16,141 nucleotides of DNA from Candidatus Baldrarchaeota archaeon (GTDB lineage Archaea > Asgardarchaeota > Baldrarchaeia > Baldrarchaeales > DXJG01): assembly GCA_019056805.1 (NCBI GenBank), contig DXJG01000011.1, forward strand, positions 1-16,141, written 5' to 3'. Both the position numbers and the translations under genes were made by a program. Position 1 is the first letter of the stretch; the number at the start of each line of letters is the position of its first letter. A model generated the notes under the pieces. It was not told the DNA's origin, did no database searches, and saw only the letters and a program-made list of their open reading frames with translations. Of this stretch, positions 179-16,141 are shown piece after piece.

Positions 179-203
179 GTCGAAGGATTATTATATTATA
201 CAT

Positions 204-607
204 GGAGCCGGGAGGGGCAGGACGGCCGCCGGTGCCCTGGTTTAACCGGGGTGCTGAGGAAGGTCCCCCCTCCTTCGAAGCTACGGCGTGGTGTAAACCA
301 CAAGCCGAGAGGCTTGCTCCGGGAACAGAAACGACACGTCCACATGTGCAGATGACGATGAGGCGGTTGAGAATCACCGGTTTGGTGATTCGAGAAGGAA
401 CCTGGTGACAGGTTCCGAGTTAACCCGTTGAGGAGCCATGTGGGATCGGTGAAACGGCCCGACGCCGTGGAGCAAGCCCGAGTAGGCCGGGAGGTTTGCT
501 TCGAGCCGGATGACCGGCGGGTTGGGTGCTTAGTTTAATGCCGTCTGGGCACTTCCGGTGACGGAGGTGCCGAAACAAAAGGGGGCCTACTCGCCCCACC
601 CGGCTCC
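204..607 (+). ncRNA. rnpB: RNase P RNA, archaeal type A
   Basis: Terminal P1 helix GGAGCCGGG-A-GGGGC (from 204) pairs with GCCCC-A-CCCGGCTCC (to 607). Conserved regions in the right order: GAGGAAGGTCCCCCC (CR-I), ACAGAAAC, GAAACGGCC, GGAGCAAG, GCTTAG..AATGCCGTC, AACAAAAGGGGGCCTAC (CR-V). A P19-like hairpin GGCACTTCCG-GTGA-CGGAGGTGCC is present. T-rich tract follows at 608-620. Confidence 0.95.
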
Positions 608-625
608 AATTTTACTTTTATGTTG

Positions 626-1603
626 TTAAGGTTGTATTACGCAACATGTTTCGTGGTACTTTAATGTGTATTTTTGTTTTTGGAGTTGTTTTTGTGTTAG
701 ACGTGTTGGTGTTGTTAGTTTGTTGATTCCAGCTTTTACTGCCAATAGTTCTGTTTCTGTTTTTTGTTTTCCTCCTGGTATCATACATCCGAGGGCTATT
801 GGTGTTTTTGGGAATAGTATACGTGTTATGGCTGTTATTGTTGCTATTGTTTGAGGTGATGGTGGTGATATATTTTGCATAGAAGTTTTTGGTGTTGGTT
901 TTAGAGCAATAAGAACTATTGTGGAAGGTGTTATCGTTGATATTATTTTTAGTGCGTTTAGTTCGTGTTTTATTTTTCCATAGTGTAGTCCTATACATAT
1001 GTGGGGGGATATTCCTTTTACACCTGCTTCTTCTAGGGTTTTAAGTGCTGTTTGATAGTCTTTAGGGGTTTTTTCTATTTGGTAAATTTCTTTTATTGTT
1101 GATGTGTCTCCAACGATGTCTATGGATGCGTAGTCTATTTCTGTTTTTGCTAGTTGTTTTGCTAGTTTTAGAGGTATTAATCCGGTGTGAACATTTATTA
1201 TTAAGTTTGTTTCGTGTTTTACTCTTTTTAATACATCTATGAAGTTTTCGAGGAGTACGTATCCGTTTTTTGTGTTTCCGCCGCTTATTAAAACTCCTTT
1301 AGCTCCTTTCTCATATAATTTTAAACAGATTTCGAATAGTTTAGATGGTGTTGGTGCTGATATCATATGTTTTAAATAGTGTTTTTCGCAATGTTTGCAG
1401 TTTAAAGCACACCAAGTACCTGTCACCGATATAGGTGGAAAATTTTTGCCAGGATAATAGCAGTGTATAGTTTTCTGGAAGTTTTTATATGTTATCTCCT
1501 CGGCTCTTCTTACAAGTTGCTCAAATACTTCTATTTTACCTAATTCCTTGAAAAGACTATCTATGTTGCTGAAGTCGTTTAAATTGTATTGAAGGGGTTT
1601 CAT
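626..1603 (-). CDS. lipS1: Radical SAM protein, archaeal lipoyl synthase subunit LipS1 type
   Basis: CxxxCxxC (CALNCKHC), GG motif (LISGGN), LGCMIP (variant of the LipS1 GC(M/A)R motif) and a C-terminal CC (ETCC). Adjacent to a LipS2-type gene. Confidence 0.8.
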   Translation of the reverse strand: MKPLQYNLNDFSNIDSLFKELGKIEVFEQLVRRAEEITYKNFQKTIHCYYPGKNFPPISVTGTWCALNCKHCEKHYLKHMISAPTPSKLFEICLKLYEKGAKGVLISGGNTKNGYVLLENFIDVLKRVKHETNLIINVHTGLIPLKLAKQLAKTEIDYASIDIVGDTSTIKEIYQIEKTPKDYQTALKTLEEAGVKGISPHICIGLHYGKIKHELNALKIISTITPSTIVLIALKPTPKTSMQNISPPSPQTIATITAITRILFPKTPIALGCMIPGGKQKTETELLAVKAGINKLTTPTRLTQKQLQKQKYTLKYHETCCVIQP

Positions 1604-1635
1604 GTTTCAATCCCTTTAAGACTATTCGATCATTT

Positions 1636-2637
1636 TTATAGAAATTGTAGTTCCTTTCTAATTCTTTTTATTTCTTCCTTTGAAGGATTCCATGGAAAAT
1701 TGTAGATTGGGCCTCTTGGAGATTCGTTGTAAAATGGTCTATTACAACCTGGGCAGCCACTTGTTCTAAAAGGTTGTCCGCTTTCAATTATTTTATTTAA
1801 TTCTTCTCGAGTTATCCCGAAATCTATTATTTTACCTTCTTCACTAAAGCCCATATTTTCTTTTCTTGTTATTTTGTTTTGAATAAGATATCTTGCAATT
1901 TGTATTCTTCTATATTTGTCTATTGGAGGTGAAGGATGTTTTTCCAGTTTTGTTCCCGTAATGGGTGTGAAAGCGAAAAGTCCAATGATAATTTTCAAGT
2001 CGGAAAACTCTTGTATAAAGTTAACAGCCTCCTTCTCGGTCTCGCCTAACCCAATAATGAGATGGGTTGATACCTTACCTTCTCCAAATATTTTAATTGC
2101 CCTTTTCAAGGCGTCCATATGTTTTTCCCAAGTATACGGTCCCCCTACCTGTTTACCTTTAATTTTGTCAAAAATTTCAGGCGTTGCAGCGTCAAAAGGT
2201 ATACCTAATCGTTCTACCCCCAATTCTTTCAAAATTTTCATTTTGTTTTCGTCTATTGGGTGAACTGGTAGAGAAATAGGAATTTCAGGTGCTAATTTGT
2301 ATATTTGGGTAATAATAGCTTGGAGATCTTCAAAAAGGCTGAGATAATTCAGGGTTTGAATACATATTCTTTTTATTTCCTTTTTCACTTTTTTGTTCTT
2401 TAATGCTTTGCAAACTTGGTTGAAAGGATAAGTAGGCCACGAGATTCTCGATAACATTTTCAGGTTCGATTTACTTTCTCTTGCTTGGGGGCAAAATGCG
2501 CAGTTCGCTGTACATCGCCTCGATGTATAGGTCATAAAATATGCGGTTGTTGGGTAAGCTAGCAATTTAATGTGTGTTAAATTTAGTACTGCTGCTGTTC
2601 CAAGAGAAACCCTTATTTTAAACGAACTGTTAAACAT
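1636..2637 (-). CDS. lipS2: Radical SAM protein, archaeal lipoyl synthase subunit LipS2 type
   Basis: CxxxCxxC (CTANCAFC) and TSGCPGCNRP, which is the LipS2 signature TxGCPxC(N/D)RP. Start moved from the ORF-track GTG (2652) to ATG 2637 because GGAGG lies 8 nt upstream of that ATG. Confidence 0.85.
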   Translation of the reverse strand: MFNSSFKIRVSLGTAAVLNLTHIKLLAYPTTAYFMTYTSRRCTANCAFCPQARESKSNLKMLSRISWPTYPFNQVCKALKNKKVKKEIKRICIQTLNYLSLFEDLQAIITQIYKLAPEIPISLPVHPIDENKMKILKELGVERLGIPFDAATPEIFDKIKGKQVGGPYTWEKHMDALKRAIKIFGEGKVSTHLIIGLGETEKEAVNFIQEFSDLKIIIGLFAFTPITGTKLEKHPSPPIDKYRRIQIARYLIQNKITRKENMGFSEEGKIIDFGITREELNKIIESGQPFRTSGCPGCNRPFYNESPRGPIYNFPWNPSKEEIKRIRKELQFL

Positions 2638-2735
2638 TAATGCTTCCTCCACAGTTCTCAGTGTTCTATAAGACCTTTCATATCAAGACGTGTTGAAAGC
2701 AATGTTACAACTCGAAATTGGAATTTATGTAAATT

Positions 2736-3281
2736 TTAAATGTCTAATTTGTATTTTTCCTTCAATAATTTATTTTGCTTTTCCACAACTTCTTCAGGTG
2801 TTTTAGCATTTCGGTAAGCTTCAAGAAAATCTTCGTTTAATTCTAGGAAATGCAATCCCCACTTAAAAATCGAAAGTATATCTTTTGCTTGATTTTCAAA
2901 ACCTATTATGTAAAGGGCTGCAGCTAAAGCTTCTGCTGTGCTCAACATTCCTATTTTGCCGTAATTTATAGGGTTTACTGCTACTAAAGCAGGTAAAATC
3001 CTTCCTCTTCCTCGAAGTAGGTTAGGAATTCCCTCCTCGATTTTTTTCCATGAACAGTCAATAGCTACAATACCATGTTTTACTGCTAACTCTCTATCTA
3101 GGGGAGAAAAGACTTGAGAAACTAGAGGATTAAGTATTAATGTCTTCTTCGGAATATATCTTAAATTATAAACTACTTTAGCTTTGCCATGCCTATTTAA
3201 TTTTAATGCTGTACACTTCTTGGGATCGCACTGTCTTTCATGATATACATACAATTTAATGGTCTTTTTTGCTTTCTCCAT
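2736..3281 (-). CDS. tsr3: SSU rRNA aminocarboxypropyltransferase Tsr3 (DUF367 family)
   Basis: Family motifs QCDPKKCTALKL, DCSWKK, LPALVAVNPINYG, LSTAEALAAALYI and FKWG..F.ELN. Confidence 0.92.
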   Translation of the reverse strand: MEKAKKTIKLYVYHERQCDPKKCTALKLNRHGKAKVVYNLRYIPKKTLILNPLVSQVFSPLDRELAVKHGIVAIDCSWKKIEEGIPNLLRGRGRILPALVAVNPINYGKIGMLSTAEALAAALYIIGFENQAKDILSIFKWGLHFLELNEDFLEAYRNAKTPEEVVEKQNKLLKEKYKLDI

Positions 3282-3354
3282 TTTTCTCGATATAGTAAAG
3301 AAAGATTAATTTAAAATTGCATCGATTAAATTATGAAGATAAGGAGGGAAAGAT

Positions 3355-3603
3355 TTGCCGATAGCTTTTATCCTTATTAAAACTAAGGCTGGTTTAGAAG
3401 AAAAAGTTCTTAAGAAGGTTTTAGAAATCGAAGGGGTAAGAGAAGCCTATATTGTGCTAGGTGTATACGATATCATTGCTAAAGTATCTGTTGAACGTTT
3501 AGAAAAACTACAAGAAATTATTCGTCAAAAAGTGAGGGGAGAAATAGAAGAAATAGAAGAAACCATGACTATGCTTGTTATAGAAGGAGCTTCAAAAGAT
3601 TAA
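3355..3603 (+). CDS. Stand-alone Lrp/AsnC ligand-binding (RAM) domain protein, no HTH
   Basis: 82 aa with pattern AFILIK..G.E..V...L.EIEGV.EAY.V.G.YDIIAKV. TTG start preceded by SD AGGAGGG. Confidence 0.85.
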   Translation: MPIAFILIKTKAGLEEKVLKKVLEIEGVREAYIVLGVYDIIAKVSVERLEKLQEIIRQKVRGEIEEIEETMTMLVIEGASKD

Positions 3604-3614
3604 CATGCTCATAT

Positions 3615-5177
3615 TCACTTTCTCAGTAGATATTTTCCAATAGCCAAACAATCCATTAAACCTTCTTTAAAAGTTTTAATTGCATCTAAAGGGGAACATA
3701 CAATAGGTTCTCCATGAATATTCATCGACGTATTCAAGATTGCGCCCATACCAGTTTCTTTCTCAATAATTTCTATAATGCGCCTATATTCTTGGCACTC
3801 GCCTCTTTTAATAGTTTGAGGTCTTGTTGTCCTATCCACATGAACCACAGCTGGGATCTCCTCCAACGCTTTTTCAGTAACTCTAAAAGCTATAGTCATA
3901 AAAGGAGCATAACATGCATCCACCAAGTACTCATTAACCCTCTCATATAAGATGGTTGGAGCAAAAGGCTGCCACCATGGACGTCTCTTCCTCTTGTTAA
4001 GCTCACCTACAAGCTTCTTTTCACTAGGCAATGATAGGACACTTCTATTTCCAAGAGCCCTCGGGCCAAATTCCATTCTGCCAGAAAATCTCCCAACAAT
4101 ATATCCTTTTAAAAGTAAATCTGCAATAGCTTCATTAATGTCATCATAATATTCCGCTTTATCTTCCATCCTATATTTTCTTAAAGCCTCCTTTATACCC
4201 TCATCATCGTATTCCGGACCAAGATAAACATGTTCAAGAGGTCTTGGCTTAGTATCCTTGCCATCTATAAGTCTCATCCTAGCCCAAACCTCGAGCGCTG
4301 CACCAACACATAATCCTCCATCACCCATATGAGGAAACACGTACAAATCTTTTGAAATTTCCTCTCTTATCCTCATGTTTAAATGTACATTTGCAGCTAT
4401 TCCACCTGCGAAAACGATTTTCTTTACATCAACTTCCTCAAGCACCTTTTTTAAAAGGTTTAAAACTAACTCTTCAAGTCTTTTTTGAGCCGCAGCAGCT
4501 ATATCAAATGAAGAAACCTCCTTTAACTTTTCTTTCATTAGCTTAACAGCCTCTGCCCCTACTGCACCTAATTTATTTCTAAAACTTAAACTTTTAACGT
4601 CTAAATCTATAAACTCACTTACAATGCCATAACATTTGGAAGGATCTCCATGAGCCGCCATACATGCTACTTTAGCTTCATCAGCCATCGGTCTGAAACC
4701 AAGCAGCTCAGTAATATTAGCAAAGAAATCGCCTACGGAGTTATAGGCGTTAGATTGATAAAGTGGGATAATTTCACCTCTCCTTCCTAGACTTACTGTA
4801 GCAGATAAGCCGTCACCCGCCGCGTCAATCGTCACTACAAGTGCATCACTCCAACCACACGTTCTATAAGCGGAAGCAGCATGGGCTAAATGATGATCAA
4901 CATATATTTGAGGAATACCTGGAAAAAGCTTTAAAAGATATTTTTCTAATTGAGAAGCTCTTGTAAACCTCCTAAAAACTCCGCCAATAGCAATATAATC
5001 TACATCACCAAAACTTAATCCAGTGCAACGGAGAAGCTCATTTATTGCGTTTTTAGGAATCCCTCTTTGATGTTTAACACGTGTAAATCTCTCTTCACTA
5101 GCCGCTGCAATCACAACTCCATCTTTAACTATCGCAGCGCCAGCATCATGACCGTCACAAATACCTAAAATAATCAT
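3615..5177 (-). CDS. Carbamoyltransferase, NodU/CmcH/TobZ family (Kae1-like N-domain plus YrdC-like C-domain)
   Basis: MIILGI.DGHDAGAA, EERFTRVKH, HHLAHAASAY, IDAAGDG, GGIAANV, MGDGG..VGAAL, GRMEFGPRALGNRS, RPWWQPFAP, VHVDRTTRPQT, LNTSMNIHGEPIV. Confidence 0.92.
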   Translation of the reverse strand: MIILGICDGHDAGAAIVKDGVVIAAASEERFTRVKHQRGIPKNAINELLRCTGLSFGDVDYIAIGGVFRRFTRASQLEKYLLKLFPGIPQIYVDHHLAHAASAYRTCGWSDALVVTIDAAGDGLSATVSLGRRGEIIPLYQSNAYNSVGDFFANITELLGFRPMADEAKVACMAAHGDPSKCYGIVSEFIDLDVKSLSFRNKLGAVGAEAVKLMKEKLKEVSSFDIAAAAQKRLEELVLNLLKKVLEEVDVKKIVFAGGIAANVHLNMRIREEISKDLYVFPHMGDGGLCVGAALEVWARMRLIDGKDTKPRPLEHVYLGPEYDDEGIKEALRKYRMEDKAEYYDDINEAIADLLLKGYIVGRFSGRMEFGPRALGNRSVLSLPSEKKLVGELNKRKRRPWWQPFAPTILYERVNEYLVDACYAPFMTIAFRVTEKALEEIPAVVHVDRTTRPQTIKRGECQEYRRIIEIIEKETGMGAILNTSMNIHGEPIVCSPLDAIKTFKEGLMDCLAIGKYLLRK

Positions 5178-5302
5178 TTTAATACACCTAAATTAACATG
5201 AATAGGGTGACATATGAAAGTTTAAATTTTCACGCTCTCGAATAACATCAAATCGTTTTAATCCCTAAATAAATGAAACTCAGAAACTAGGTCGAATCAA
5301 CA

Positions 5303-6631
5303 ATGACATTACTTCATATCGGAATCGATGATACGGACTCACTTATTGGCGGTTGTACCACTTACATAGGTGCTAGGCTAGTTCATCGACTAGAAAAAGA
5401 AACAAAAGCCAAATTCATCGATTATCCAAACCTTATAAGATTAAACCCAAACATCCCATACAAAACAAGAGGAAACGGAGCTGTATGTCTAAGAATAAAC
5501 ATAGAAGAAAATATGATAGAAGATGTAGAAAACATTGTTATCGAAGAAGTAGAAGAAAACTCCGACCTAAAATGCGAAGAAACACATCCCGGAATCGTTT
5601 TCTTCAAAGGAAACGTCCCACCTGAACTTAAAAAATTCGCAAAGAAAGCTGTAACTGATGTCATAATGCTCGACGAAGCTCTAAAAATAGTAAACAAAAC
5701 CGGTGCAAAAATAAAAACCTACAAAAAGGGAAGAGGCATCATAGGGGCCCTGGCAGCCATCGGAAACACTTTAGAAAAAGACCACACATATGAACTGTTA
5801 TCCTACAGGTCCCCAGAACATTGGGGAACCCCCAGAACCATAGATGAAGACTCAGTTTATCTAATGGACAAGCTAACAAACCCAGAAACCTTCAACAACA
5901 TAGACAAGGAAACCAAAAGAATATTAATTACTCCCCACGGACCCGACCCAGTACTATATGGAATAAGAGGAGAAACCCCAGAAATAGTTAAACTAGCATC
6001 AAAAATCGTAGTATCATACGAGCCAATAGAAAGATGGGTAATATATAGAACAAACCAGGGAACAGATGAACACCTAACAAAACTAAGAAAAATAAAAGAA
6101 ATAAAACTATATCAACCAGCAAAAACCCTCGTAAAAATAATAGAACCACCTAAAATCATACCAGGAGGACATGTAATAGTAAAAGCGGCAGACAACACAG
6201 CAACCATCGATCTCGCTGCATACGAACCAACAGGAAACTTCAGAAAAATCATCCAAAAACTAATCCCAGGAGACACCATAATCGCGTACGGAGGAGTAAA
6301 ACCCCAAGAAAACAAACCTCTAACATTAAACCTGGAAAAAATAGAAATACTAAACTTAGCACCAAAAATAATATACAAAAACCCCAAATGCTCGAAATGC
6401 GGTAAAAGAATGAAATCAGCAGGAAAAAACCAAGGATACCGCTGCAAAAAATGCAAAACCCATGCAAAAAACATAGAAAAAGAAAAAATACAAATACCAA
6501 GAGAAATAAAGCCAGGAATATACCTACCGACACCAAGAGCACACAGACACCTTACTAAACCCCTTCAAAGATACGGCAGGGAAAAGAAAAACAAACCAAA
6601 AAAACTCATAGAAAAATGGCATTACCCCTAA
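5303..6631 (+). CDS. tiaS: tRNA(Ile2) agmatinylcytidine synthetase TiaS
   Basis: IGIDDTDS..GGCTTY, LIRLNPNIPYKTRGNGA, GRGIIGALAAIG, PHGPDPVLYGIRG, TNQGTDEHL, GGHV (OB fold), zinc ribbon CSKC..CKKC and RHLTKP. Confidence 0.96.
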   Translation: MTLLHIGIDDTDSLIGGCTTYIGARLVHRLEKETKAKFIDYPNLIRLNPNIPYKTRGNGAVCLRINIEENMIEDVENIVIEEVEENSDLKCEETHPGIVFFKGNVPPELKKFAKKAVTDVIMLDEALKIVNKTGAKIKTYKKGRGIIGALAAIGNTLEKDHTYELLSYRSPEHWGTPRTIDEDSVYLMDKLTNPETFNNIDKETKRILITPHGPDPVLYGIRGETPEIVKLASKIVVSYEPIERWVIYRTNQGTDEHLTKLRKIKEIKLYQPAKTLVKIIEPPKIIPGGHVIVKAADNTATIDLAAYEPTGNFRKIIQKLIPGDTIIAYGGVKPQENKPLTLNLEKIEILNLAPKIIYKNPKCSKCGKRMKSAGKNQGYRCKKCKTHAKNIEKEKIQIPREIKPGIYLPTPRAHRHLTKPLQRYGREKKNKPKKLIEKWHYP

Positions 6632-6685
6632 CCAAAACACTACAAGACAATAAACCCGCCCAAAAACCAAAAAGCAAACAAAAAC

Positions 6686-6703
6686 CAACGATAAATTTAA
6701 AAA
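6686..6703 (+). promoter_or_regulatory. Putative BRE/TATA promoter of tRNA-iMet
   Basis: CAACGATAAATTTAAAAA with TTTAAAA at 6696-6702. Typical archaeal spacing puts the start site near 6724-6728. Confidence 0.5.
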
Positions 6704-6726
6704 ACAAAAATATCACACACTAACAT

Positions 6727-6748
6727 AGCGGGGCAAAACACAGCGGGG
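6727..6748 (+). repeat. Direct repeat AGCGGGG (6727-6733 and 6742-6748), 8-nt spacer CAAAACAC; the repeat unit equals tRNA-iMet nt 1-7
   Basis: Seen directly: AGCGGGG-CAAAACAC-AGCGGGG. The upstream copy is a G-rich stretch in a flank that is otherwise almost free of G. Confidence 0.85.
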
Positions 6749-6779
6749 ACTACCCCAATACAAAATTGGGTAGCCGCAA
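6749..6779 (+). other. 31-nt non-canonical tRNA intron between nt 7 and 8
   Basis: Bulge-helix geometry: central helix GCGG(6743-46):CCGC(6774-77), 5' bulge GG|A, intron helix CUACCC(C)AAU:AUUGGGUAG, 3' bulge AA|U. Cutting after the second nt of each bulge joins G7 to U8 exactly. Confidence 0.85.
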
Positions 6780-6811
6780 TGGGGTAGCCAGGAGATCCCG
6801 CGGGGCTCATA

Positions 6812-6843
6812 AGCCCGACAGATACATCCTCTCGGGTTAAGAA
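6812..6843 (+). other. 32-nt canonical 37/38 tRNA intron
   Basis: Central helix CUCA:UAAG (one C:A mismatch), 5' bulge UA|A, intron helix GCCCGA:UCGGGU, 3' bulge AA|A. Confidence 0.92.
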
Positions 6844-6888
6844 ACCCCGAGATCGGAGGTTCAAATCCTCCCCCCGCTACCATATACC

Positions 6889-6920
6889 TTTACCTTTTTT
6901 GGTGGTTTTTTGTGGGTTTT
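6889..6920 (+). terminator. Oligo(T) terminator tracts after tRNA-iMet
   Basis: T6 runs at 6895-6900 and 6906-6911, immediately after CCA. Confidence 0.55.
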
Positions 6921-6960
6921 CGTGGCGATTTTTTTGAGTTTTATTTGCTTAAATAATTCG

Positions 6961-7191
6961 TTAAGTTTTCTCATAATTAGAACCTCTCTTTATTTTGTCG
7001 GAATATCTTTCGATGATAAATTGGGCGAAATCTTTCTCGTGTTTTTGAAAGAACCAGTCTTTGAACAGTTTTCTAAATGAAATTGGTTCTTCAACTATTT
7101 TTGCAAAATATCTCTCCAGTTCAGATGTGAATATTACGAGTCCTCCTTGGAGATTGATTAGTTGGGCAAGGGTCAGTTTTTTGTCACCGAT
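6961..7191 (-). pseudogene. Start-less 76-codon open frame, probable gene remnant of unknown function
   Basis: Manual translation gives IGDKKLTLAQLINLQGGLVIFTSELERYFAKIVEEPISFRKLFKDWFFQKHEKDFAQFIIERYSDKIKRGSNYEKT*, which has protein-like composition. One extra A in the A6 run would put GTG (7187) in frame. Not in the ORF track. Confidence 0.35.
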
Positions 7192-7298
7192 TTAAACGTG
7201 AAAAAACGTTTTAAAATTTTATCGGAAAAATTATACGTGGAGATAAAGAGAGTCGACGAAAGTATTTTAATTTTTAATCATTGATTTATCGATAAGAT

Positions 7299-7322
7299 AT
7301 ATCTGGAAACGTTTCCAGATAT
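7299..7322. repeat. Perfect 24-bp palindrome ATATCTGGAAAC|GTTTCCAGATAT
   Basis: Seen directly. Extends to 7294-7325 if a 2-nt AT duplication in the left arm is bulged. Confidence 0.85.
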
Positions 7323-7466
7323 CTTGAGGGGGTCTCAGCCTAGCTTAGACAAGTCATTTCATCATGTGAAGGTGATGAGTAAAGCTTTCTAAGCTGGTTA
7401 TCATCGGCTCTGATGACATTTATTTTAACTTTAGTTTATAAGTTGAGTCCTAGATGGGTGTGATAA

Positions 7467-8942
7467 ATGAATACTAAGTTGACTAAGTTGGTAGGTGCGG
7501 CAATTATTGTGGTGCTACTTTCATTAACGGTCTATGGATGTTACGAATTATTGCTCAACGAGTCGGAGAAACCGTGCACAGCAAAGGTGAAAATGCATAT
7601 AATCCCGGTGGATGAGAAAGGAAAAGAGGTCCGGTGGAACTTCTGCACAGCAATACATAATTTTACCGAGTACTGGGCTAAGCCGCATAGCGAAGTAGTA
7701 TATCTAGGAACCAAAAGAACGGTGACATTGAATGTGCATAGAGAACTACTTATTGGAGGAAGATTGCTTATCCATGAATATGCCATCTTCCTGTATAATG
7801 GTACGCACTCGGGTGGAAAGCTGGTTCGTATAGAGCCTAGGGAGTACCGTATTGAACTTTCCATCAGAATACGTGTATATAGGGTATCTGAAAACTCACA
7901 TTCACCTCTAAGAAAAGTCGTACCACCCCTACTTAACTCGTCGTCAGAACCAGTAAAAGGTTATTGCTATGAGGAACTCGAAGAAGTTGTATATACGTCA
8001 GAATTGATGCCTGCTTTACAACTTCATTCAATAGGAGGAATTTCCGTTAGCGTCCACTTTGAAATAGGCAACTACTTATTCTATTCTCAAAAGTATAGAG
8101 AAGCAGATCTACCGGGTGAGTGGGGTCCTTGGCAGACATCTGGCGATAAGGCCACAAAATCTAACAATAAACTCACAACGGGATCAATTTCGGGTGGCAG
8201 TAAAAAGTGGATCTACGTAAACGTAGATTATAGATATGAGCGATGGTTTTACGGGGTGGATTGGGTCCAATGGTGGAGGGAAATAGTGACGCCAGTGAGT
8301 TTTGGAGGATATGACTGGGGTGAGTCTATATCATGCACTTACTGTGAAGGAACTCCTACAGGCTTTGTACAGAGCTATCCTAGGGGCACTGGAATGCCTA
8401 TCGAAATGAGCCTAGGTCCAGGCATCAGCGAGATTGAGAGATCAGGTATAAGCGTATCCTTCGAGGTGTCTTATGGTGTGGTCTCCCTGACTGTAGAGTT
8501 ATGGTATGAAATAGAGAGAGGTGAAGCTCTCTATCCTCCATCAATACTGGTTAATGTAGATACATGGTACGCTGACACTTTATATGTCTTCGATGCCAGC
8601 ACCGAGTGGAAGGTAGTGCATTTCACGTGGAGTGGCGGAGGTAGTGGTGGTATGGTTTTTAGGCGTGGTGTTTTTAGGGTTTCTGATTATTGGGTTAGGG
8701 AATGTATTTCTTGGTTTGTTAGGGATCTTGATCTTAATAGATTGGGTGATTTCTTTATTGTTGGTCTGGGTTGTGGTTATAGTCCTTTCCATAAGTATCT
8801 TGAAGATGTAGTTAGGGTTGAAGGTAAGGCTCGTGATATTGAGGTGTATACGGGTTACTATGAAGGGGTTAAGGTATCTGCTATTGCGACTCCTGGTGGT
8901 ATGGTTCATACGGAGCCTGTGGTGATTTTGGGAGGTTGCTAG
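7467..8942 (+). CDS. Hypothetical secreted or membrane-anchored protein (~395 aa) fused in frame to the N-terminal ~96 aa of a nucleoside phosphorylase
   Basis: N-terminal basic plus hydrophobic segment (KLTKLVGAAIIVVLLSLTVYGCY), sequons NFT, NGT and NSS, beta-rich aromatic body, then a GGGSGG linker. From ATG 8652 the sequence resembles a PNP/UDP N-terminus (YTGYYEGVKVSAIATPGG). Confidence 0.65.
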   Translation: MNTKLTKLVGAAIIVVLLSLTVYGCYELLLNESEKPCTAKVKMHIIPVDEKGKEVRWNFCTAIHNFTEYWAKPHSEVVYLGTKRTVTLNVHRELLIGGRLLIHEYAIFLYNGTHSGGKLVRIEPREYRIELSIRIRVYRVSENSHSPLRKVVPPLLNSSSEPVKGYCYEELEEVVYTSELMPALQLHSIGGISVSVHFEIGNYLFYSQKYREADLPGEWGPWQTSGDKATKSNNKLTTGSISGGSKKWIYVNVDYRYERWFYGVDWVQWWREIVTPVSFGGYDWGESISCTYCEGTPTGFVQSYPRGTGMPIEMSLGPGISEIERSGISVSFEVSYGVVSLTVELWYEIERGEALYPPSILVNVDTWYADTLYVFDASTEWKVVHFTWSGGGSGGMVFRRGVFRVSDYWVRECISWFVRDLDLNRLGDFFIVGLGCGYSPFHKYLEDVVRVEGKARDIEVYTGYYEGVKVSAIATPGGMVHTEPVVILGGC

Positions 8943-9453
8943 AAATGTTAAAGCTATTGTGGGTGTTGGTTTTTGTGGGGTTTTGAGGGAAGATATTGGT
9001 ATTGGTGATGTGGTGATACCTGTTGCGGCTGCAAGGGATGAAGATACAACTGATCATTATGTGGATAAGAAGGTGCCTGCTGTAGCAGATTTTGAATTAA
9101 TTTCGAAGTTAATTGAGGTGGCTAGAAGGTATAAATTGAAAGTTCATGTTGGATCTATAGTTACGACGTCATCACCGTTTAGTGAGGATGTAGAATGGGT
9201 TAGGAAATGGAGTAGTTATGGTGTATTGGCGGTTAAGTGTGAAACGTCGGTCCTATATCTTCTATCATACTTGAATAATATACCAGTGGCAGCAATACTT
9301 ACTGTAAGTGATAATGTTGTGAAGAAAGAAATGTACTGGATGAAACCTGAAGTAGAGAAAGCAATGGTGGAAACTTATGATAAGGTAATTAAGGTAGCCT
9401 TAGATATTTTAACTGAAATAGTTTATAGCGAAAAACATGGTTTATACCGCTAA
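8652..9453 (+). pseudogene. Nucleoside phosphorylase (PNP/UDP family), split by a +1 frameshift at ~8930-8932
   Basis: The 3' ORF has VGVGFCGVL..DI.IGDVVIP.AA.RDE, HVG.IVTT, VKCETSVL and ILTVSD but no N-terminus. The missing N-terminus lies in the upstream frame from ATG 8652 (SD-like GGTGGT). Removing one G from the GGG at 8930-8932 gives ..PVVILEVARNVKAIVGVG.. continuously. Confidence 0.75.
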
Positions 9454-9560
9454 TATCTTTAAAATACACAATTTAGTTTCAAATTTCCCTAATATGGTTC
9501 AAAACACCATAAAAATCTTAAAAATAAATTTGATTAGAAGAAGGATTGGAGAGGAAAATG

Positions 9561-12500
9561 CTAGTTTTGTTCTTCGGTGGGGTGTATGATTTTTTGGTTG
9601 ATGAGGATTTTTAGGGTTTTTAGGGTTTTTAGTGGGTTTATTTTTTCTTTTTTGGTTACTTCTGTTAGTAGTTTTGCTATGGTGAATGATCCTTCTATTT
9701 CTGTGATTTCTTTCGCTACTTTTAATATTTTTCTTTTGATTCCTCTAATTCTTGGAGGGATTTCTGTGACTTCGTATTTTGTGAAGATGTGTTTTGGGAA
9801 GCTTTCTTTTACTATGTTTTTGGCTTTGTCAAAAATTGATATTTCGAAGGTGTTGGTTTTAAGGTTTTTTTCGAATTTGTCTTCAAATTTGTCTAGGAAG
9901 TTTCTTAGGGATTCTTTTATTTCTGGGAGTAGTTTTCCGGGTGCTATGAGTATTGAGTAGGCGTATTTTCCTGAGTGGAATGTTAGTACTTTGGGTTCTG
10001 GGGTTTCGTAGTATATTTCTCCAATTTCTCCTTCTCCTGTGCCTCCGATTTCGGAGTAGAATCCTCTTACTGCTTGGACAAATCCTGCTACGATGTTTGG
10101 GTCTGTAGGTGTCTTTTTGAAGGAGTATTCGAATATGCAGCGTCCGCTTTCTTTGTCGACGACTAGGAGAGATTCTAGGCTGTTGAGTTCTAATATGAGT
10201 TCGTATTCTCGTAGAAGTTTTTTGTTTTCTGTTTTTATTTTGTGTTTTCTTTTTGATATGTATCCGAAGGTTCCTATAAAGATGATAGATGTGATTAATA
10301 TTATTGTGGTAAGCCAGCGTGGAAGTAGGGATTTCGAAGTTGAAATAGAGGGTTTGATTGTGATGTTGTAGGTGGTGTGTGCGGAGGTTTTATCGGTCAT
10401 TCCTTCGTAAACTACTGTTATTTGTATTTTGGACATTTCGTTATTTGTTGGTATGGTGTATGAGAATTCTCCTTTCGTGTTTGTTACGGTTTCGTATTCA
10501 AATTGTTTCTTTGTTCCATTTTTGTAAGTCACTAAGACTATTATTTTGATGGTTGCCATGCCTATTGGATCTTTGTTTTCTGTGGTTAGAGTTCCTGATA
10601 TTAATATGGTGTTGCCAGCAGTTACTTCTTGTGGGACATTAACTGTAAGTATTGTGCGTGTTTTTGGTAGAATGTAAAGTGGAATTTCAAGTGTTTGTGG
10701 AAGATAGTATGGTGCCTCTATTACTACGTTTATTGAATAGTTGCCGGGTTGGAGTCCTGTTAGGTTTAAAGTGCAGCTATAGTTTTGATAGTTAAATGTT
10801 GCAAGCCATTTATGGTTGTTTACGGTTAATGTGATGCTGCAGTTTTCTAATGGAGTGTTTCGGAAAGAATCTATGATGTTAAAGTGTATTGTTATTGTTT
10901 CGTTTTCATATTGTTTAAGGACTTGGGGTTGATATGTTATTTTCATTTTTCCATAAATTGTTAGGTATCCTTTCCATGTTTTGGTTTCATGATTTGGGCA
11001 GTTTACCATGATGGAGATGGAGTAGTTGCCGACATATTGTGTTATGTTAAAGTAGATGGTTGATGAGTTGCTAAAGATTGTAAGTACTGATTCGTTGAGA
11101 TAAATTGTGCCATTAAAGTGGGTTATTGGGTTTCCCCATTGATCTGTATAGTTTATTGATATTGTAAACTGTTGTCCGGCTTCTATTTCTTTGGGGCATA
11201 ATACATCAAGATTCGTTTTCTTGGGCATTATGCGAATTGTGATGTTTATTTCTTTGGGTTCATAGCTCTCTTTTGAACATTGAATTGTCATATTGTACGT
11301 TCCTAGTTCATGAAAAGTTGTTATATTTATGTATGCCGTGCCATTATATTCGAAAATGTATTTTGATGTCCCAATGTATCCTATAACGGTTGCATTTTCA
11401 AGATGTGTGCCATTAATATCTGTGTAATAGATGGTTATTGTTAATGGGGTTTCATAGTTTCCAATTATGGTTTCATTTGGCATGCTTACATTTGTTGAAT
11501 ACACAAATGTGATGTTAAAGCTGAGGATTGCATCTTCATATCCCGTTTTTTGAGCGTATACGGTCAAGGAATGATTCCCAGAAGAATATCCCTTTGTGGT
11601 GAGGTTGGCGGCATATATACCTTCTCCTTCATCTTTGAAGTAAGTAACTTGGTTGTTCCACGTTGTCCAGACCGTTGCACCTTCTATTCCGGTATCGTGA
11701 ACTTTATCAACATATTTTACCTTTACTGTTGCATTTTCACCTATACAATAATAGGGAGCAGTATGGCTTTCAAGAAATGCGGAATACACAAATAAAACAT
11801 TACCAATGTACAGGTAACCAGCTTCGAATCCTGTAAGAAAAAGTGTTGCAATAATGTATGTTCCATTTGTAAATGACTTATCTGGTGTCCAGTAGATTCC
11901 TAGTGATGACTTATTGTTGGTTGGTTGCGAAGTATTGTAATAGAGAATATTATCTGAGGAGTTGTATACTAAGAAGGTGAGGGTCCCGTTCCAATCATGA
12001 GCTCCTGGTATTAGAAGAATTAAAAAGGAATTTTCTTCGTCTATAATAACGGGTGAGGGAGAATCGATTTTTTTAACGTAGTTGGGACTAGTGAACTCTA
12101 TGCGCCAGTTATCGTAAACATATAAAGTAATGTTTTTCCAGTTTGCTGCAGTAATTGGTGTTTCCTCTATGTCTGTTATATTCCAGCATCTGGAGACATT
12201 CCAATCTTTTGGAACTTTGAATGTAACACTACAATTTGTAAAGGTTGACGGAAAGGTTTCAGAGGGTGAAACGTTCCAGAAAACTGTAGTAGTATCAGCA
12301 TCTGCTAAAAATCTTGTCAGACACCGACTGTCTTTGTCGTGTTTCATAAGGTAATTTAGATCAAAGGTTATGTTCCAAAGAGAAGTTATGTTAAACGTTA
12401 TACTTTCGCTATTGTTGAGTACGCCCTCTAGTTCTATGATTCCACTATTCGGTACTTGTGTTCCGTTAACTTGAAGATTTATTTCTGAAGGTGAGAGGGA

Positions 12501-13379
12501 TAGGTCGAGTGGTTGAAGATTTAAATCCATGACCATATCGATATTTGAGATGTTGTACGTGTTTGATATCCAGACATCTTCTTCGTTTTCTCCATCCGTA
12601 GCGTCGTTAACACAATACCACCAAAAATCGTATGCTTTTGGCGCGGGAGGTCCTGCTTCGGCTTCTAACCGTATGAAAAATGTGTTATTATCCGTTTCGT
12701 TGGTGAGAAGTGTAACATTGATATTTAGTGATAGAAAAAACTGGTCTAAAGAGGATGCGGTTTCAAACAGGGTTTCTCCACTTTTAATTATTTTGTCAGG
12801 ATACGAAGTATTAGAGAGAGAATTCCACGTAGAGTTTAAGATAGCCCACCTCAAAGTAAAACTACCGTCAACGTAAACCAAGATTTGTACCGTATCTAGG
12901 TGGCATGACATAGGTAGGGTAAAAGAAGCGTATACGGTTAGATTCTGGTCATTACTATTTTCAAAGAATTTTACGTAACCATCTGGACTATCCTCTTCTA
13001 TTATTTTTGAGAAATTTTGCGGTGTTATTTTTTCAAATTTAAGCCTTATATTACTCGTACTATATCCATAAGTCTTTACTTGAGTAATATTGGCAAACTT
13101 GTCAAATCTTCTATTTGTATCGATAAAAAAATGATTCGTGGAAGCATTACCAAGCGATCTATTTTGTTGTCCATAAAGAATTGTCAAAATTCTTGATCCA
13201 TTTCCCTTAATATATGGTTGAAATGTTTCTATCGAGTCTGTTTCAATAATATTATCATTTTCTAAGCATCTGGAGGGAGGAGAAGTTACCCAGAGGACGC
13301 TGAATATTAATGGTAAAATTAATAGTATGAAAATTTGCCTAGTTCTTCGGGAACTCTTTAACAACTGGGTACCTCCCAA
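9561..13379 (-). CDS. Large single-pass surface protein: signal anchor, ~1000-aa glycosylated ectodomain with about five Ig-like repeats, TM helix, cytoplasmic longin-like and winged-helix-like domains
   Basis: N-terminal RRTRQIFILLILPLIFSVLW, many NxS/T sequons, and repeats of the type (V/I)xYxD..G.P(I/L)..A.V..Y.(L/I)T(V/I)...K.GY. TM WLTTIILITSIIFIGTFGYI (~10260-10315) is followed by SKRKHK, then LLVVDKESGRCIFEYSF..DPNIVAGFVQAVRGFYSEI. The likely start is TTG 13364, 6 nt after GGAGGT. Confidence 0.8.
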   Translation of the reverse strand: MGGTQLLKSSRRTRQIFILLILPLIFSVLWVTSPPSRCLENDNIIETDSIETFQPYIKGNGSRILTILYGQQNRSLGNASTNHFFIDTNRRFDKFANITQVKTYGYSTSNIRLKFEKITPQNFSKIIEEDSPDGYVKFFENSNDQNLTVYASFTLPMSCHLDTVQILVYVDGSFTLRWAILNSTWNSLSNTSYPDKIIKSGETLFETASSLDQFFLSLNINVTLLTNETDNNTFFIRLEAEAGPPAPKAYDFWWYCVNDATDGENEEDVWISNTYNISNIDMVMDLNLQPLDLSLSPSEINLQVNGTQVPNSGIIELEGVLNNSESITFNITSLWNITFDLNYLMKHDKDSRCLTRFLADADTTTVFWNVSPSETFPSTFTNCSVTFKVPKDWNVSRCWNITDIEETPITAANWKNITLYVYDNWRIEFTSPNYVKKIDSPSPVIIDEENSFLILLIPGAHDWNGTLTFLVYNSSDNILYYNTSQPTNNKSSLGIYWTPDKSFTNGTYIIATLFLTGFEAGYLYIGNVLFVYSAFLESHTAPYYCIGENATVKVKYVDKVHDTGIEGATVWTTWNNQVTYFKDEGEGIYAANLTTKGYSSGNHSLTVYAQKTGYEDAILSFNITFVYSTNVSMPNETIIGNYETPLTITIYYTDINGTHLENATVIGYIGTSKYIFEYNGTAYINITTFHELGTYNMTIQCSKESYEPKEINITIRIMPKKTNLDVLCPKEIEAGQQFTISINYTDQWGNPITHFNGTIYLNESVLTIFSNSSTIYFNITQYVGNYSISIMVNCPNHETKTWKGYLTIYGKMKITYQPQVLKQYENETITIHFNIIDSFRNTPLENCSITLTVNNHKWLATFNYQNYSCTLNLTGLQPGNYSINVVIEAPYYLPQTLEIPLYILPKTRTILTVNVPQEVTAGNTILISGTLTTENKDPIGMATIKIIVLVTYKNGTKKQFEYETVTNTKGEFSYTIPTNNEMSKIQITVVYEGMTDKTSAHTTYNITIKPSISTSKSLLPRWLTTIILITSIIFIGTFGYISKRKHKIKTENKKLLREYELILELNSLESLLVVDKESGRCIFEYSFKKTPTDPNIVAGFVQAVRGFYSEIGGTGEGEIGEIYYETPEPKVLTFHSGKYAYSILIAPGKLLPEIKESLRNFLDKFEDKFEKNLKTNTFEISIFDKAKNIVKESFPKHIFTKYEVTEIPPRIRGIKRKILKVAKEITEIEGSFTIAKLLTEVTKKEKINPLKTLKTLKILINQKIIHPTEEQN

Positions 13380-13590
13380 TATCTTGCCCTATTTTTGCAG
13401 TTATATATGTAGTATCAGTAATAACTACAATAATTATTATATCGTTCTTAAGAATATAAGACTTGTTTTCGGTAGTTTTTGAGAAATTCGCAATGAGAAG
13501 CAAGAAAAGAAAATCTAAGATATTTTGCCGTCATAACTCATTTCCATGGTGTTTATATCGGATATTCATGAATTTTATTTTCAACGTTAT

Positions 13591-14463
13591 TTATAGTTTG
13601 ATAAACGGAGAACCAACAAATATTATAAGCGCTGTCAACATCGCAATTAAGACAAGATTTTTTATTTTCTTAGCGTTTTCTGACGAGTAGTCTCTAAGTA
13701 GAGAGATTGAAAATATTATGAACAGTGAATCTGTCACGAGAATTATGAGAATGAGGTAGGAAATTCCAAGTAGGCCTAATAGATATGGTAAAGGACTTAA
13801 AACAACTGCTGAGAGATAAAACAATGCTGCAATACGTGCAGCTGTTCTCGGTCCGAAAGATATAGCTATTGTCTTTATGTTTTTAGTTTTATCTCCTTCT
13901 ATGTCTACTATTCCCTTATTGATTTCTCTTCCAGTGTTCGCAAGAAAAGCTAGAAGAGAAAATATTATGAGAATAGGTGGGAAGCTTTTTGTAACCACTA
14001 GTCCTCCGAATAAGAAAGGCGCTGCTACACATAAACTTACAATTATATTTCCCAAGAATCCTGTAGCTTTAAGTTTAGCATTATAGGCAAAGGAAAGACC
14101 TAGAAAGATACTTGCAAAAATGAAGCATTCTAATCCAAGTGGTATAGCTGAAGATAATCCTATAATTGTAAATAATATGAAAAGGAGTACTGCTTCTTTT
14201 GGTGTGATATCTCCGCGTGGAATTGGTCTATTAGGATTATTAATGGCATCTATTTCTCGGTCAAAATAATCATTAATGACATCTGCAGCAGCTTGAAGAA
14301 AAAACCCTGTAAAAAAGCCAAGAATAACCTCCTTTATTTTCAAATAATCTTGAAACGCAAAAATTTCGCCTATAATTACAGCAAAACCAATCATAACACA
14401 ATTAATAACACGCATAATCTCAATGATACCTCTTACTTTCAAGCAAGATTCCTCCACAAACAC
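13591..14463 (-). CDS. Digeranylgeranylglyceryl phosphate (DGGGP) synthase, UbiA prenyltransferase family
   Basis: IMRVINC, NDYFDREIDAINNPNRPIPRG (NDxxDxxxD), YNAKLK..G..GN and REINKGIVDIEGD, with multiple TM helices. The true start may be TTG 14442, after GAGGA. Confidence 0.88.
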   Translation of the reverse strand: MFVEESCLKVRGIIEIMRVINCVMIGFAVIIGEIFAFQDYLKIKEVILGFFTGFFLQAAADVINDYFDREIDAINNPNRPIPRGDITPKEAVLLFILFTIIGLSSAIPLGLECFIFASIFLGLSFAYNAKLKATGFLGNIIVSLCVAAPFLFGGLVVTKSFPPILIIFSLLAFLANTGREINKGIVDIEGDKTKNIKTIAISFGPRTAARIAALFYLSAVVLSPLPYLLGLLGISYLILIILVTDSLFIIFSISLLRDYSSENAKKIKNLVLIAMLTALIIFVGSPFIKL

Positions 14464-14697
14464 CCATACAATAATTTTCTTTCTATATTATTCAAATTAT
14501 GGTGTAAACAGAATAACCACCATTCATTCACAAGCACTTAAAATATATTATATATCATAACCACCGACAAACTAAATTCACAACCTCAATTTTATGAAAT
14601 CAACATAACTTACAATCACCACTTAAACACCTAAAAATTATCCTTATCTAAATATAAAATTCTACCTAAGTTACCAGAGACGTTTAAAAGTAGAAAA

Positions 14698-14775
14698 TGG
14701 TGGGCCCGGAGGGATTTGAACCCTCGACCGCCCGGTTATGAGCCGGACGCTCTAACCTGGCTAAGCTACGGGCCC
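14698..14775 (-). tRNA. tRNA-Ile2(CAU), intronless, CCA encoded (TiaS substrate)
   Basis: Reverse complement GGGCCCG-UA-GCUU-AGCCAGGUUA-GAGC-G-UCCGG-CUCAUAA-CCGGG-CGGUC-GAGGG-UUCAAAU-CCCUC-CGGGCCC-A-CCA, 78 nt. The GGGCCC acceptor is the isoleucine type, and it closely matches the recalled Archaeoglobus tRNA-Ile2. Confidence 0.9.
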
Positions 14776-14867
14776 CTAAGCCAACGTCACCTCACCTGAA
14801 TTTATGCTTTTTGGTAATCCCTACCGCACAACACAACGCTAATATACCGCCGATTTTATTTGGAACC

Positions 14868-15647
14868 ATGGAAGCATATGGCAGATTTTATGCGAACGGA
14901 GAGGTATTCGAGGGATATTTTAAGATTGATGGCGATAAACTGAATTTTGAGGGTCTTGAGTTCCATACCGATGCCTTGAAGTTCCTACCCCCCGTTAAGC
15001 CGAAGAAAATCGTGTGCGTAGGGGTGAATTACAGGGATCATGCTGAAGAATTCGGGAAAGAGGTCCCTGAAGAACCGATAATTTTCATGAAGCCCGAATC
15101 CGCGGTTATAGGAGATTCGGACCCAATAATTCTTCCTCCCCAATCCGGGAGGGTTGACTACGAGGGAGAGCTTGCAGTCGTAATCGCAAAGAGGTGTAGA
15201 AATGTCGGATACGAGGAGGCAAAGGATTTTATCCTTGGTTACACGTGTTTCAACGATGTAACGGCGAGAGATCTGCAATTTAAAGACGGTCAGTGGACAA
15301 GAGGAAAGTCCTTCGACACCTTCGCACCCCTCGGCCCCTACGTAGTTCACGACTTGGATCCTGAAAATCTGAAAATCGAAACGTTTCTGAACGGAAAAAT
15401 CGTGCAGGCATCTAACACTTCGAACATGGCCTTCAATGCGTTCAGGCTTGTGGAATTCATCTCATCGATCATGACGCTGAAAAGGGGTGACGTGATAGCC
15501 ACCGGCACACCCTCTGGCGTGGGAGCGTTGAAGCATGGTGACGTGGTCGAGGTGAGAATAGAGGGAATCGGCGGTCTGAGAAATCCCGTGAGGTCTTGGA
15601 AGTCAGATCCCTGGAAGGCAAATCCTGAGATCACAGGAAGCTTTTAG
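14868..15647 (+). CDS. Fumarylacetoacetate hydrolase (FAH) family protein
   Basis: KIVCVGVNY.DHAEE, PEEPIIFMKP, DYEGELAVVI, GYTCFNDVTARDLQ, WTRGKSFDTF.PLGP and GDVIATGTP.GVG. Start set at ATG 14868 (MEAYGRF) rather than the upstream TTG 14811. Confidence 0.92.
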   Translation: MEAYGRFYANGEVFEGYFKIDGDKLNFEGLEFHTDALKFLPPVKPKKIVCVGVNYRDHAEEFGKEVPEEPIIFMKPESAVIGDSDPIILPPQSGRVDYEGELAVVIAKRCRNVGYEEAKDFILGYTCFNDVTARDLQFKDGQWTRGKSFDTFAPLGPYVVHDLDPENLKIETFLNGKIVQASNTSNMAFNAFRLVEFISSIMTLKRGDVIATGTPSGVGALKHGDVVEVRIEGIGGLRNPVRSWKSDPWKANPEITGSF

Positions 15648-15789
15648 GTGGAGGTATGGAGACAATGCGATAGAAATCACTTCAGAAATTTTTAATAGCC
15701 ACCCGTTCGATGGAACTTCTGAGAAAGTTCTGAAACGGAGTGATTGAAGCGTTAATCTGAACCTGACCTCAACTTTCAGGGTGATTGGG

Positions 15790-16141
15790 ATGGAAAAGGA
15801 GGATATATCACCGGATGAGGGTAAGCTACTGGGTAAGGATATACCGCTGGATAAAGAATACAAGGCCATTGAAAACGAAATGAAATGGATCGAGGCATGG
15901 GAGGGGATGGATCTCTACCGCTTCGACTGGGATTCTGAAAAACCCCGCTACATAATCGACACTCCTCCTCCCTACCCAACCGGCTCCTTCCACATTGGCA
16001 ACACGCTGAACTGGTGTTACATCGATTTCATAGCCAGATACAAACGAATGCGTGGATATGAGGTGATGTTCCCGCAGGGATGGGATTGCCATGGATTGCC
16101 GACTGAAGTCAAGGTGGAGGAGAAGCATGGGATAAGCAAGA
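15790..16141 (+). CDS. valS: Valyl-tRNA synthetase, 5' part (runs off the window; absent from the ORF track)
   Basis: Manual translation [94 protein letters not shown]. It has the HIGH-type motif (HIGN) and GWDCHGLP; SD-like AGGGTGAT lies upstream. Confidence 0.93.

Follow-up and report, generated by a model that had tools for sequence, protein, structure and literature searches.

Archaeal and bacterial surface proteins with immunoglobulin (Ig)-like repeats (of the Big, CARDB, CarboxypepD_reg and macroglobulin (MG) types) usually end in a short anchor, such as PGF-CTERM, a simple transmembrane helix or LPXTG, and are not known to have a folded cytoplasmic module. Roadblock and longin dimers, for their part, serve as platforms for small GTPases, as in MglB, Ragulator, TRAPP and Mon1-Ccz1 (PMC10933270). 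Liu et al. (bioRxiv 10.1101/2020.10.19.343400) assign 130 asCOGs to the Roadblock/LC7 superfamily of Asgard archaea, and structural work on Asgard longin and Roadblock proteins is presented by Tran et al. 2024 (PMC10933270). The Asgard longin and Roadblock architectures described in the available parts of these sources are soluble, and are either stand-alone or fused to GTPases, two-component domains or Vps28-C/ESCRT parts (bioRxiv 10.1101/2020.10.19.343400, PMC10933270, PMC10936438). Here, we analyzed a stretch of DNA of 16,141 nucleotides, referred to below as the window, from a Candidatus Baldrarchaeota archaeon (GenBank assembly GCA_019056805.1, contig DXJG01000011.1, positions 1 to 16,141 of the forward strand), and focused on a gene on its minus strand at 9561-13379. 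The encoded surface protein resembles the Ig-repeat proteins in its heavy load of glycosylation sequons and in the beta-sandwiches predicted for its stalk, and differs from them in having a cytoplasmic module, predicted to consist of a longin domain and a winged helix.

Asgard archaea have many small GTPases and many longin and Roadblock proteins, which raises the question of what they do in cells that lack internal organelles. Longin platforms in the tails of surface proteins would offer a concrete, testable site of action directly under the cell surface. Our best reading, held with modest confidence, is that the tail forms a dimeric, membrane-tethered docking platform. We found no paper on a protein combining a signal peptide, an ectodomain, a transmembrane helix, a longin domain and a winged helix in the literature searched, which consisted mainly of the main texts of openly accessible papers.

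Membrane topology

The gene is a single open reading frame (ORF) on the minus strand (9561-13379), with 1272 codons from the first TTG and a stop codon at 9561-9563. Residue numbers are counted from this first TTG at 13379 (the 1272-aa reading). Two hydrophobic segments were identified. The first, at residues 13-36 (13272..13343, minus strand), follows a basic stretch and reaches a Kyte-Doolittle 19-mer mean of up to 2.35, as in a signal peptide. The second is a transmembrane helix at residues 1021-1041 (10257..10319, minus strand), delimited by hydropathy and directly followed by KRKHKIK, in agreement with the positive-inside rule. The ectodomain thus comprises residues 37-1020, and the cytoplasmic tail residues 1042-1272 (231 aa). 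The ectodomain contains 51 N-X-S/T sequons and the tail none, while in 2000 composition-preserving shuffles of the ectodomain the count was 18.2 +/- 3.6 and never exceeded 33. Because of the two hydrophobic segments, the KRKHKIK stretch and the placement of all sequons on the outer side, the ORF product is a single-pass type I surface protein (N-out/C-in), and from its sequence we infer N-glycosylation of the ectodomain. This is the topology, with a cytoplasmic tail of ~230 aa, that had been proposed in a first-pass annotation made from the sequence alone. Orthologs share 40-76% identity in the ectodomain and 65-84% in the tail; in the more distant ones the tail is better conserved (67% versus 40% in P0006).

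Predicted fold of the cytoplasmic tail

We modeled the tail with AlphaFold2 (AF2) from an alignment of 101 family sequences, which yielded a predicted local distance difference test score (pLDDT) of 86.7 and a predicted template modeling score (pTM) of 0.80, and aligned the model structurally to 48,161 PDB chains with VIA-align. The order of elements in the model is one helix, then beta-beta-alpha-beta-beta-beta-alpha-alpha, and then beta-alpha-alpha-alpha-beta. The first helix (tail residues 2-25; 10182..10253, minus strand; pLDDT 83-92) is basic, with a net charge of +4, and continues the transmembrane helix into the cytoplasm. It is followed by a domain at tail residues 27-155 (9792..10178, minus strand) with strands at 29-34, 40-45, 78-83, 89-95 and 99-105, and helices at 53-70, 111-127 (plus 129-134) and 139-152.

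The structural comparison confirmed, at the level of models, that this first part of the tail has a longin fold, which the first-pass annotation had proposed on the basis of sequence motifs that we found as it had written them. All 20 top structural matches were longin-type, with Z scores of 9.7-12.0 over 108-135 residues. They were led by the longin domain of VAMP7 (4afi_B, Z 12.0), a CPLANE subunit (7q3d_C, 11.9), SYBL1 (2dmw, 11.7) and a Lokiarchaeal longin (8yqg_B, 11.7 over 135 residues), and included Sec22 (3egd_C, 11.1); AP sigma/mu, SRX, sedlin and synbindin scored about 10. The longin matches span model residues ~26-160, both C-terminal helices included, and nearly all of them leave the helix at 2-25 outside. 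A Foldseek search with the tail placed AP2 sigma (2e-4) and zeta-COP at the top. The tail model with its longin fold and the Asgard lineages of the best homologs are each the reverse of an outcome that the annotation had named as contrary to its reading.

The domain could instead be an archaeal offshoot of the Roadblock/LC7 superfamily or a convergent alpha/beta sandwich rather than a true relative of longins, in which case the comparison with eukaryotic trafficking proteins would mislead. Longin, Roadblock and profilin share one common core fold (PMC10933270), identity to the longin structures is only 3-16%, and Roadblock structures match the tail as well. Sequence searches point the same way: Pfam at E <= 10 gave for the tail a TnsA_C match at 0.1 only, with no Longin or Robl_LC7 match, and searches of PDB sequences with the tail, by phmmer or with a profile, found nothing meaningful. 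Nevertheless, we consider this alternative quite unlikely, since longin-type structures occupy the first 20 ranks and their alignments take in both C-terminal helices, the defining mark of the longin topology. The first Roadblock match appears at rank 21 (Z 9.4), and Roadblocks as a group (Z 7.9-9.4) align over ~100 residues and end at ~130. Moreover, the alignments do not pair the N-terminal helix of the tail with the first helix of Roadblocks, and the ORF at 9561-13379 is not among the 10 Robl_LC7 (PF03259) matches of its genome. Two paralogs in the same genome have weak, sub-threshold matches to two Pfam longin models, PF13774 (20.3 bits, cut-off 26.2) and Fuz_longin_1 PF19036 (17.7 bits, cut-off 26.1); these may form a faint sequence bridge to the longins.

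Granted a longin fold, the tail can be compared with three groups of described proteins. The eukaryotic longins (VAMP7, Sec22, the N-terminal domains of AP sigma/mu, SRX of SR-alpha, sedlin/TRAPPC2, and the first longin of Fuzzy/Inturned) have the same order of strands and helices, but none matches the tail in sequence. In longin SNAREs the transmembrane helix is at the C-terminus, after the SNARE motif, whereas here the tether is N-terminal of the domain, a large ectodomain precedes it and a winged helix follows. Asgard longins, including the Lokiarchaeal Roadblock-Longin protein of PDB 8yqg, come from the same phylum, have the same fold and show domain shuffling likewise. NPRL2 and NPRL3 (GATOR1/SEACIT) may resemble the tail in that their longin domain is followed by further small domains, and their chains 8fw5_B and 8adl_S span both the longin domain and the winged helix (Z 7.9-8.4 over 176-178 residues). 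However, the root mean square deviation (rmsd) of 11-12 A indicates that the domains of the tail are arranged differently. NPRL2/3 are soluble subunits of a GTPase-activating complex for Rag GTPases, not membrane proteins, and no match to Pfam NPR2 (PF06218) was found in the genome of the window at E <= 1.

In a side observation, parts resembling the helix plus longin-like unit were seen in predicted structures of bacterial OmpA-family proteins (Pseudomonadota, Cyanobacteriota) and of Thermoplasmatota DUF11/CARDB surface proteins, at template modeling scores of 0.51-0.54. Similar membrane-proximal modules may, judging from these models, exist outside the Asgard archaea.

Distribution of the tail module

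To describe the family, the tail was searched against 1.84 billion representative proteins, which returned 355 clusters (50% identity) at E <= 1e-3. In most cases the match forms the C-terminal end of a protein 1000-2600 residues long, and a transmembrane segment was found just upstream of the module in 131 of the 151 representatives that include the module start. The gap between the end of this segment and the first strand is nearly constant across the family (median 23 residues, interquartile range 21-26). The parts preceding the transmembrane segment are, by contrast with this uniform spacing, very diverse: their lengths vary between a few dozen and ~2000 residues, and Pfam recognizes nothing in most of them. 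On the C-terminal side, further winged-helix-like units were present in 15 of 56 members with an extension of at least 150 aa.

A single tail sequence used as query of genome contigs found no relative, whereas a subset alignment of the family succeeded. The scan of species-representative genomes with this subset alignment gave 164 confirmed loci, and lineage labels were taken from the best 80. Nearly all of these 80 are labeled Promethearchaeota; among them are Promethearchaeum syntrophicum MK-D1, Lokiarchaeum ossiferum and metagenome-assembled genomes (MAGs) of Hermod-, Hod- and Odinarchaeota. One locus, on a 4.3-kb contig (QNAH01000273.1), is labeled Zixibacteria; at 61% identity to Asgard members, it probably reflects misbinning of the contig rather than a homolog in bacteria. 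Within the phylum, module matches were found in 192 of 201 sampled genomes and in all 86 high-quality ones. Many sampled genomes have at least 14 matches, and the 201 genomes together have more than 2,200. Almost all sampled genomes of the phylum therefore have the module, often in more than 10 copies. Both cultured Asgard species carry family members, so that pull-downs, structures and localization are feasible.

The first-pass annotation had proposed a search of the genome for paralogs, small GTPases and Roadblock proteins, and all three were found. The genome of the window has seven family members, 12 Ras/Arf/Rag-like small GTPase genes and 10 Roadblock (Robl_LC7) genes. Two of the family members are type I receptors, namely the ORF at 9561-13379 and a 990-aa paralog (contig C15). 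Another is the end of a multi-pass membrane protein, and two are soluble proteins of 314 and 203 aa (contig C9). The two further matches are on contig C6 and, weakly, on contig C11.

The most conserved member of the family has 45-69% identity across Asgard classes and a C-terminal extension of ~400 aa. Of 80 loci, 59 have radA convergent with it, 25 have an unannotated ORF of ~167 aa that follows it on the same strand, and 14 have a Roadblock/LC7 gene at a distance of 1.5-2 kb. We also considered the radA/aspartate kinase neighborhood of this member in the 80 loci as an operon, and rejected this, as it reads as a conserved position.

Predicted dimerization and proposed function

Next, we turned to the question of what such a tail might do. 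Prediction of a tail homodimer gave a score of 0.48, compared with 0.00 for the best of three controls. Of proteins solved as one-chain pairs, 20 of 30 reached the mark, as did 1 of 23 solved as single chains. At least 90% of contacts were the same between runs, with a partner pLDDT of at least 80. In the predicted dimer, the interface is symmetric and formed by helix alpha1 (49-74) and strand beta3 (76-87), which is the same mode in which Roadblock and longin dimers pair. Four positions on alpha1 are invariant or nearly so (L55, G58, F59 and A62), and all of these except G58 are listed contacts. A second conserved patch lies outside the dimer interface, on alpha2-alpha3, and comprises F120, F124, E125 (99% conserved), L132 and F142. 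This patch suggests a further contact.

We propose the following mechanism. Outside the cell, a fast-evolving all-beta head would be carried on a stalk of Ig-like domains. The transmembrane helix would run into the basic juxtamembrane helix, whose fixed length would keep the longin domain just under the membrane. Two tails would then pair through alpha1 and the edge strand beta3, thus forming a membrane-tethered platform on which cytoplasmic partners could dock. In this way, either the binding or clustering of surface proteins would be coupled to the interior, or the cell would position the surface protein from within. As partners, the small GTPases and the Roadblock/longin proteins of the same genome are the foremost candidates. 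We lean slightly toward the tail docking a cytoplasmic partner of some kind; that this partner is a GTPase is possible, with the balance leaning against it. The signaling role proposed in the first-pass annotation is putative.

The idea of a dimeric membrane platform docking GTPases is shared with Ragulator (LAMTOR1-5) and MglB, which are of Roadblock type and match the tail model at Z 8-9. Their topology, however, is that of Roadblock and not of longin, and for the tail the role of a GTPase platform is putative. Furthermore, Ragulator is anchored by lipidated LAMTOR1 and not by a transmembrane helix with an ectodomain (PMC5696360).

Several points weigh against the docking platform, and most of them concern the GTPase. 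No GTPase or Roadblock gene is present in the window, and neither these nor other signaling genes lie beside the gene or its orthologs (three contigs), where a UbiA gene is the sole conserved neighbor. Among the 157 best relatives, the cytoplasmic portions contain neither a Walker A motif nor a GTPase domain; four chance Walker-A-like strings occur in these proteins, none of them after the transmembrane segment (three in ectodomains, and one before the transmembrane segment of a 418-aa protein). Likewise, none of 11 short relatives has a recorded GTPase domain. The longin/GTPase output put forward in the first-pass annotation thus found no support in gene neighborhoods or in domain fusions. 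Many longin domains do not regulate GTPases at all, as in SNAREs, AP sigma/mu and SRX. As for the dimer, its score may come from solved Roadblock and longin dimers already known to the model, and it shows likeness rather than binding. The W-x-G motif of most members (tail 135-137) is missing in the protein studied here, and all folds are predictions.

Two paralogs in the genome of the window lie near GTPase genes. A RagA/Gtr1-like GTPase gene (308 aa) is 1.4 kb upstream of the 990-aa receptor paralog (C15:47000-60000). Near the soluble 314-aa paralog (C9:584000-596000) are a Ras-like GTPase gene (247 aa), at 2.2 kb, and a gene for a small helix-turn-helix (HTH) protein, at 2-3 kb. In both cases other genes lie between or the strand differs, so that they do not form one operon. 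We discarded this proximity as evidence because it would arise by chance in about 7% of cases, an estimate based on 12 GTPase genes in 1.9 Mb.

The lack of a linked GTPase also fits a different explanation, in which the tail is a generic anchor on the inner side: it would pair surface proteins, gather them into clusters, or connect them with a scaffold under the membrane or with the cytoskeleton, and neither a signal nor a GTPase would take part. Such a tail would organize the coat of surface proteins in cells lacking an S-layer. In tomograms of L. ossiferum, an ordered S-layer is absent, while unidentified "complex surface proteins" are numerous (PMC9834061). The occurrence of the same module under dozens of unrelated ectodomains per genome fits a generic device better than a specific receptor, and the fixed spacing between membrane and domain agrees with it. 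In addition, the most conserved residues are on the predicted dimer helix and not on an obvious partner site. Against an anchor of this kind stands the second conserved patch on alpha2-alpha3, which suggests a contact other than the dimer. The winged helix, together with the extra units in relatives, also points to interactions beyond pairing, and the 314-aa and 203-aa paralogs show that soluble members of the family exist. We therefore regard the anchor as an alternative that deserves serious weight but is not the probable one. Even if the tail only pairs or anchors, it would still be an undescribed anchoring device of archaeal cell envelopes.

If the docking platform holds for the family as a whole, its members would constitute a phylum-wide, pre-eukaryotic system, in which surface proteins carry their own membrane-tethered longin platform that recruits or regulates small GTPases or adaptor-like proteins. 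We view this wider proposal as improbable at present. If true, the cell surface would be linked directly to GTPases or to machinery of the trafficking type in the archaea most closely related to eukaryotes, and the system might have foreshadowed the coupling of cargo with adaptors or of receptors with GTPases. Should the partners be GTPases or adaptor-like proteins, the finding would bear on the pre-eukaryotic origin of receptor-to-interior coupling and of cargo recognition.

The C-terminal winged helix

The end of the tail was likewise confirmed, by modeling, as a winged helix, which the first-pass annotation had placed in the last ~60 aa. In the AF2 model it spans tail residues 160-231 (9564..9779, minus strand) in the order E-H-H-H-E, with strands at 161-163 and 224-226 and helices at 173-188, 193-204 and 208-220. 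The best structural match is the C-terminal winged helix of MCM (2ma3, Z 8.4, rmsd 2.3, 60 aa), followed by SAMD1 (6lui, Z 8.2); the matches cover 60-62 residues. Weak Pfam matches to HTH or winged-helix models were found in 8-11 family members.

A winged helix in a membrane protein raises the possibility of a membrane-tethered transcription regulator of the ToxR/CadC type, in which the winged helix would bind DNA at the membrane or after proteolytic release and the longin domain would dimerize. In the protein of the window the winged helix is indeed basic (net charge +7, isoelectric point 9.9), SAMD1 is a DNA-binding winged helix, and the weak matches in relatives include NirdL-like_HTH, HTH_22 and HTH_24. 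Across the family, however, the net charge of the winged helix varies from -11 to +15 (median +2), and the conserved positions form the hydrophobic core only (F191, I193, L196, L197, L218 and P226), with no basic residue conserved. For these two reasons, DNA binding is unlikely as a property of the family, and the DNA-binding output offered in the first-pass annotation as an alternative to the GTPase is not borne out. The best match also speaks against a regulator, since the C-terminal winged helix of MCM is not known to be a sequence-specific DNA reader, as does the presence of dozens of copies per genome without conserved target-like neighbors. Overall, we judge a ToxR/CadC-type regulator to be very unlikely.

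Architecture of the ectodomain

The ectodomain was modeled with AF2 from an alignment of 10 sequences; nine relatives were found for it, all of them close. The membrane-distal part (residues 37-435; 12075..13271, minus strand) is rich in sequons and predicted to be all-beta, with strands only and a pLDDT mostly below 50. The membrane-proximal part (residues ~436-1011; 10347..12074, minus strand) is modeled with a pLDDT of 80-88 as a stalk of Ig-like beta-sandwiches. Five clear units are seen at ~540-1010, with one or two more before them. Foldseek with the ectodomain model retrieved CD109, C3/C5, alpha-2-macroglobulin and titin Ig/MG chains at E values of 1e-20 to 1e-16 (about 1e-20 for the stalk), with a high global rmsd owing to the beads-on-a-string arrangement. 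The Ig-repeat ectodomain of the first-pass annotation is thus right, as far as the model goes, for the membrane-proximal 60%; residues 37-435 are poorly modeled.

The repeats are visible in the model only: a blastp comparison of the ectodomain with itself found no internal repeats, and the Pfam matches to CarboxypepD_reg, MG4, Invasin_D3 and Big_7 were all below cut-off (for CarboxypepD_reg, 23.5 against 32.3 bits). A lectin-like lead for residues 37-540, from "Lectin_like" clusters in an Atlas feature search, had a value of 0.80, which is the chance level, and was not used.

Gene start, host genome and genomic neighborhood

The second TTG, at 13364-13362, is more likely the true start of the gene than the first. 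This choice is favored because a GGAGGT at 13376-13371 precedes it with a 6-nt spacer (start region 13362..13376, minus strand) and because the resulting product of 1267 aa matches the database representative.

The genome of the window comprises 1.92 Mb in 18 contigs and is 91% complete. It encodes a eukaryote-like actin (459 bits) and ESCRT-II EAP30 (97 bits). The closest named relatives of the ORF protein are from Candidatus Baldrarchaeia MAGs, where they are labeled "hypothetical" or "carboxypeptidase-like regulatory domain". With labels of this kind, and with a tail that falls into no Pfam family, the protein is uncharacterized, as had been stated before. An Asgard archaeon, Baldrarchaeia-like, is well supported as the host, because actin, ESCRT-II, the GTPase and Roadblock genes and the Baldrarchaeia relatives all point to it. 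The Asgard assignment of the first-pass annotation is therefore supported, and by more than the ORF at 9561-13379, which the annotation had called its main evidence.

The neighbors in the window are archaeal housekeeping genes, and comprise TiaS, a Tsr3-like gene, radical SAM enzymes, a carbamoyltransferase, UbiA, RNase P RNA and tRNA-Met. The UbiA-family prenyltransferase gene (13591-14463, minus strand) is upstream of the receptor gene and has the same orientation, an arrangement that the window shares with each of the three orthologous contigs. Of these contigs, two carry two tandem receptor paralogs and a gene for a 1484-aa protein without a Pfam match.

Between TiaS and the receptor gene is a stretch of ~2.9 kb (6632-9560) that contains an ORF of 491 aa (7467-8942), with a signal-like N-terminus and no Pfam match, and a split phosphorylase gene. 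The stretch is missing from one orthologous contig, in which TiaS directly adjoins the receptor gene. The GC content of 8001-9000 is 0.44, compared with ~0.36 in the flanking windows, and the GC skew is strong. The stretch may be an insertion. The split gene, of the PNP_UDP_1 type (8600-9453, plus strand), has its N-terminal part in the frame of the 491-aa ORF and the remainder (~8926-9453) in the neighboring frame, the switch falling within a TTTTGGG run at ~8926-8932. This may be due to a frameshift, to decay into a pseudogene or to faulty assembly; a tRNA-type intron behind the frame change was considered as well and is unsupported (fold z-score 0.28). Two RNA genes complete the window: an archaeal RNase P RNA at 210-601 (plus strand, 178 bits) and a tRNA-Met (CAT) at 14698-14775 (minus strand).

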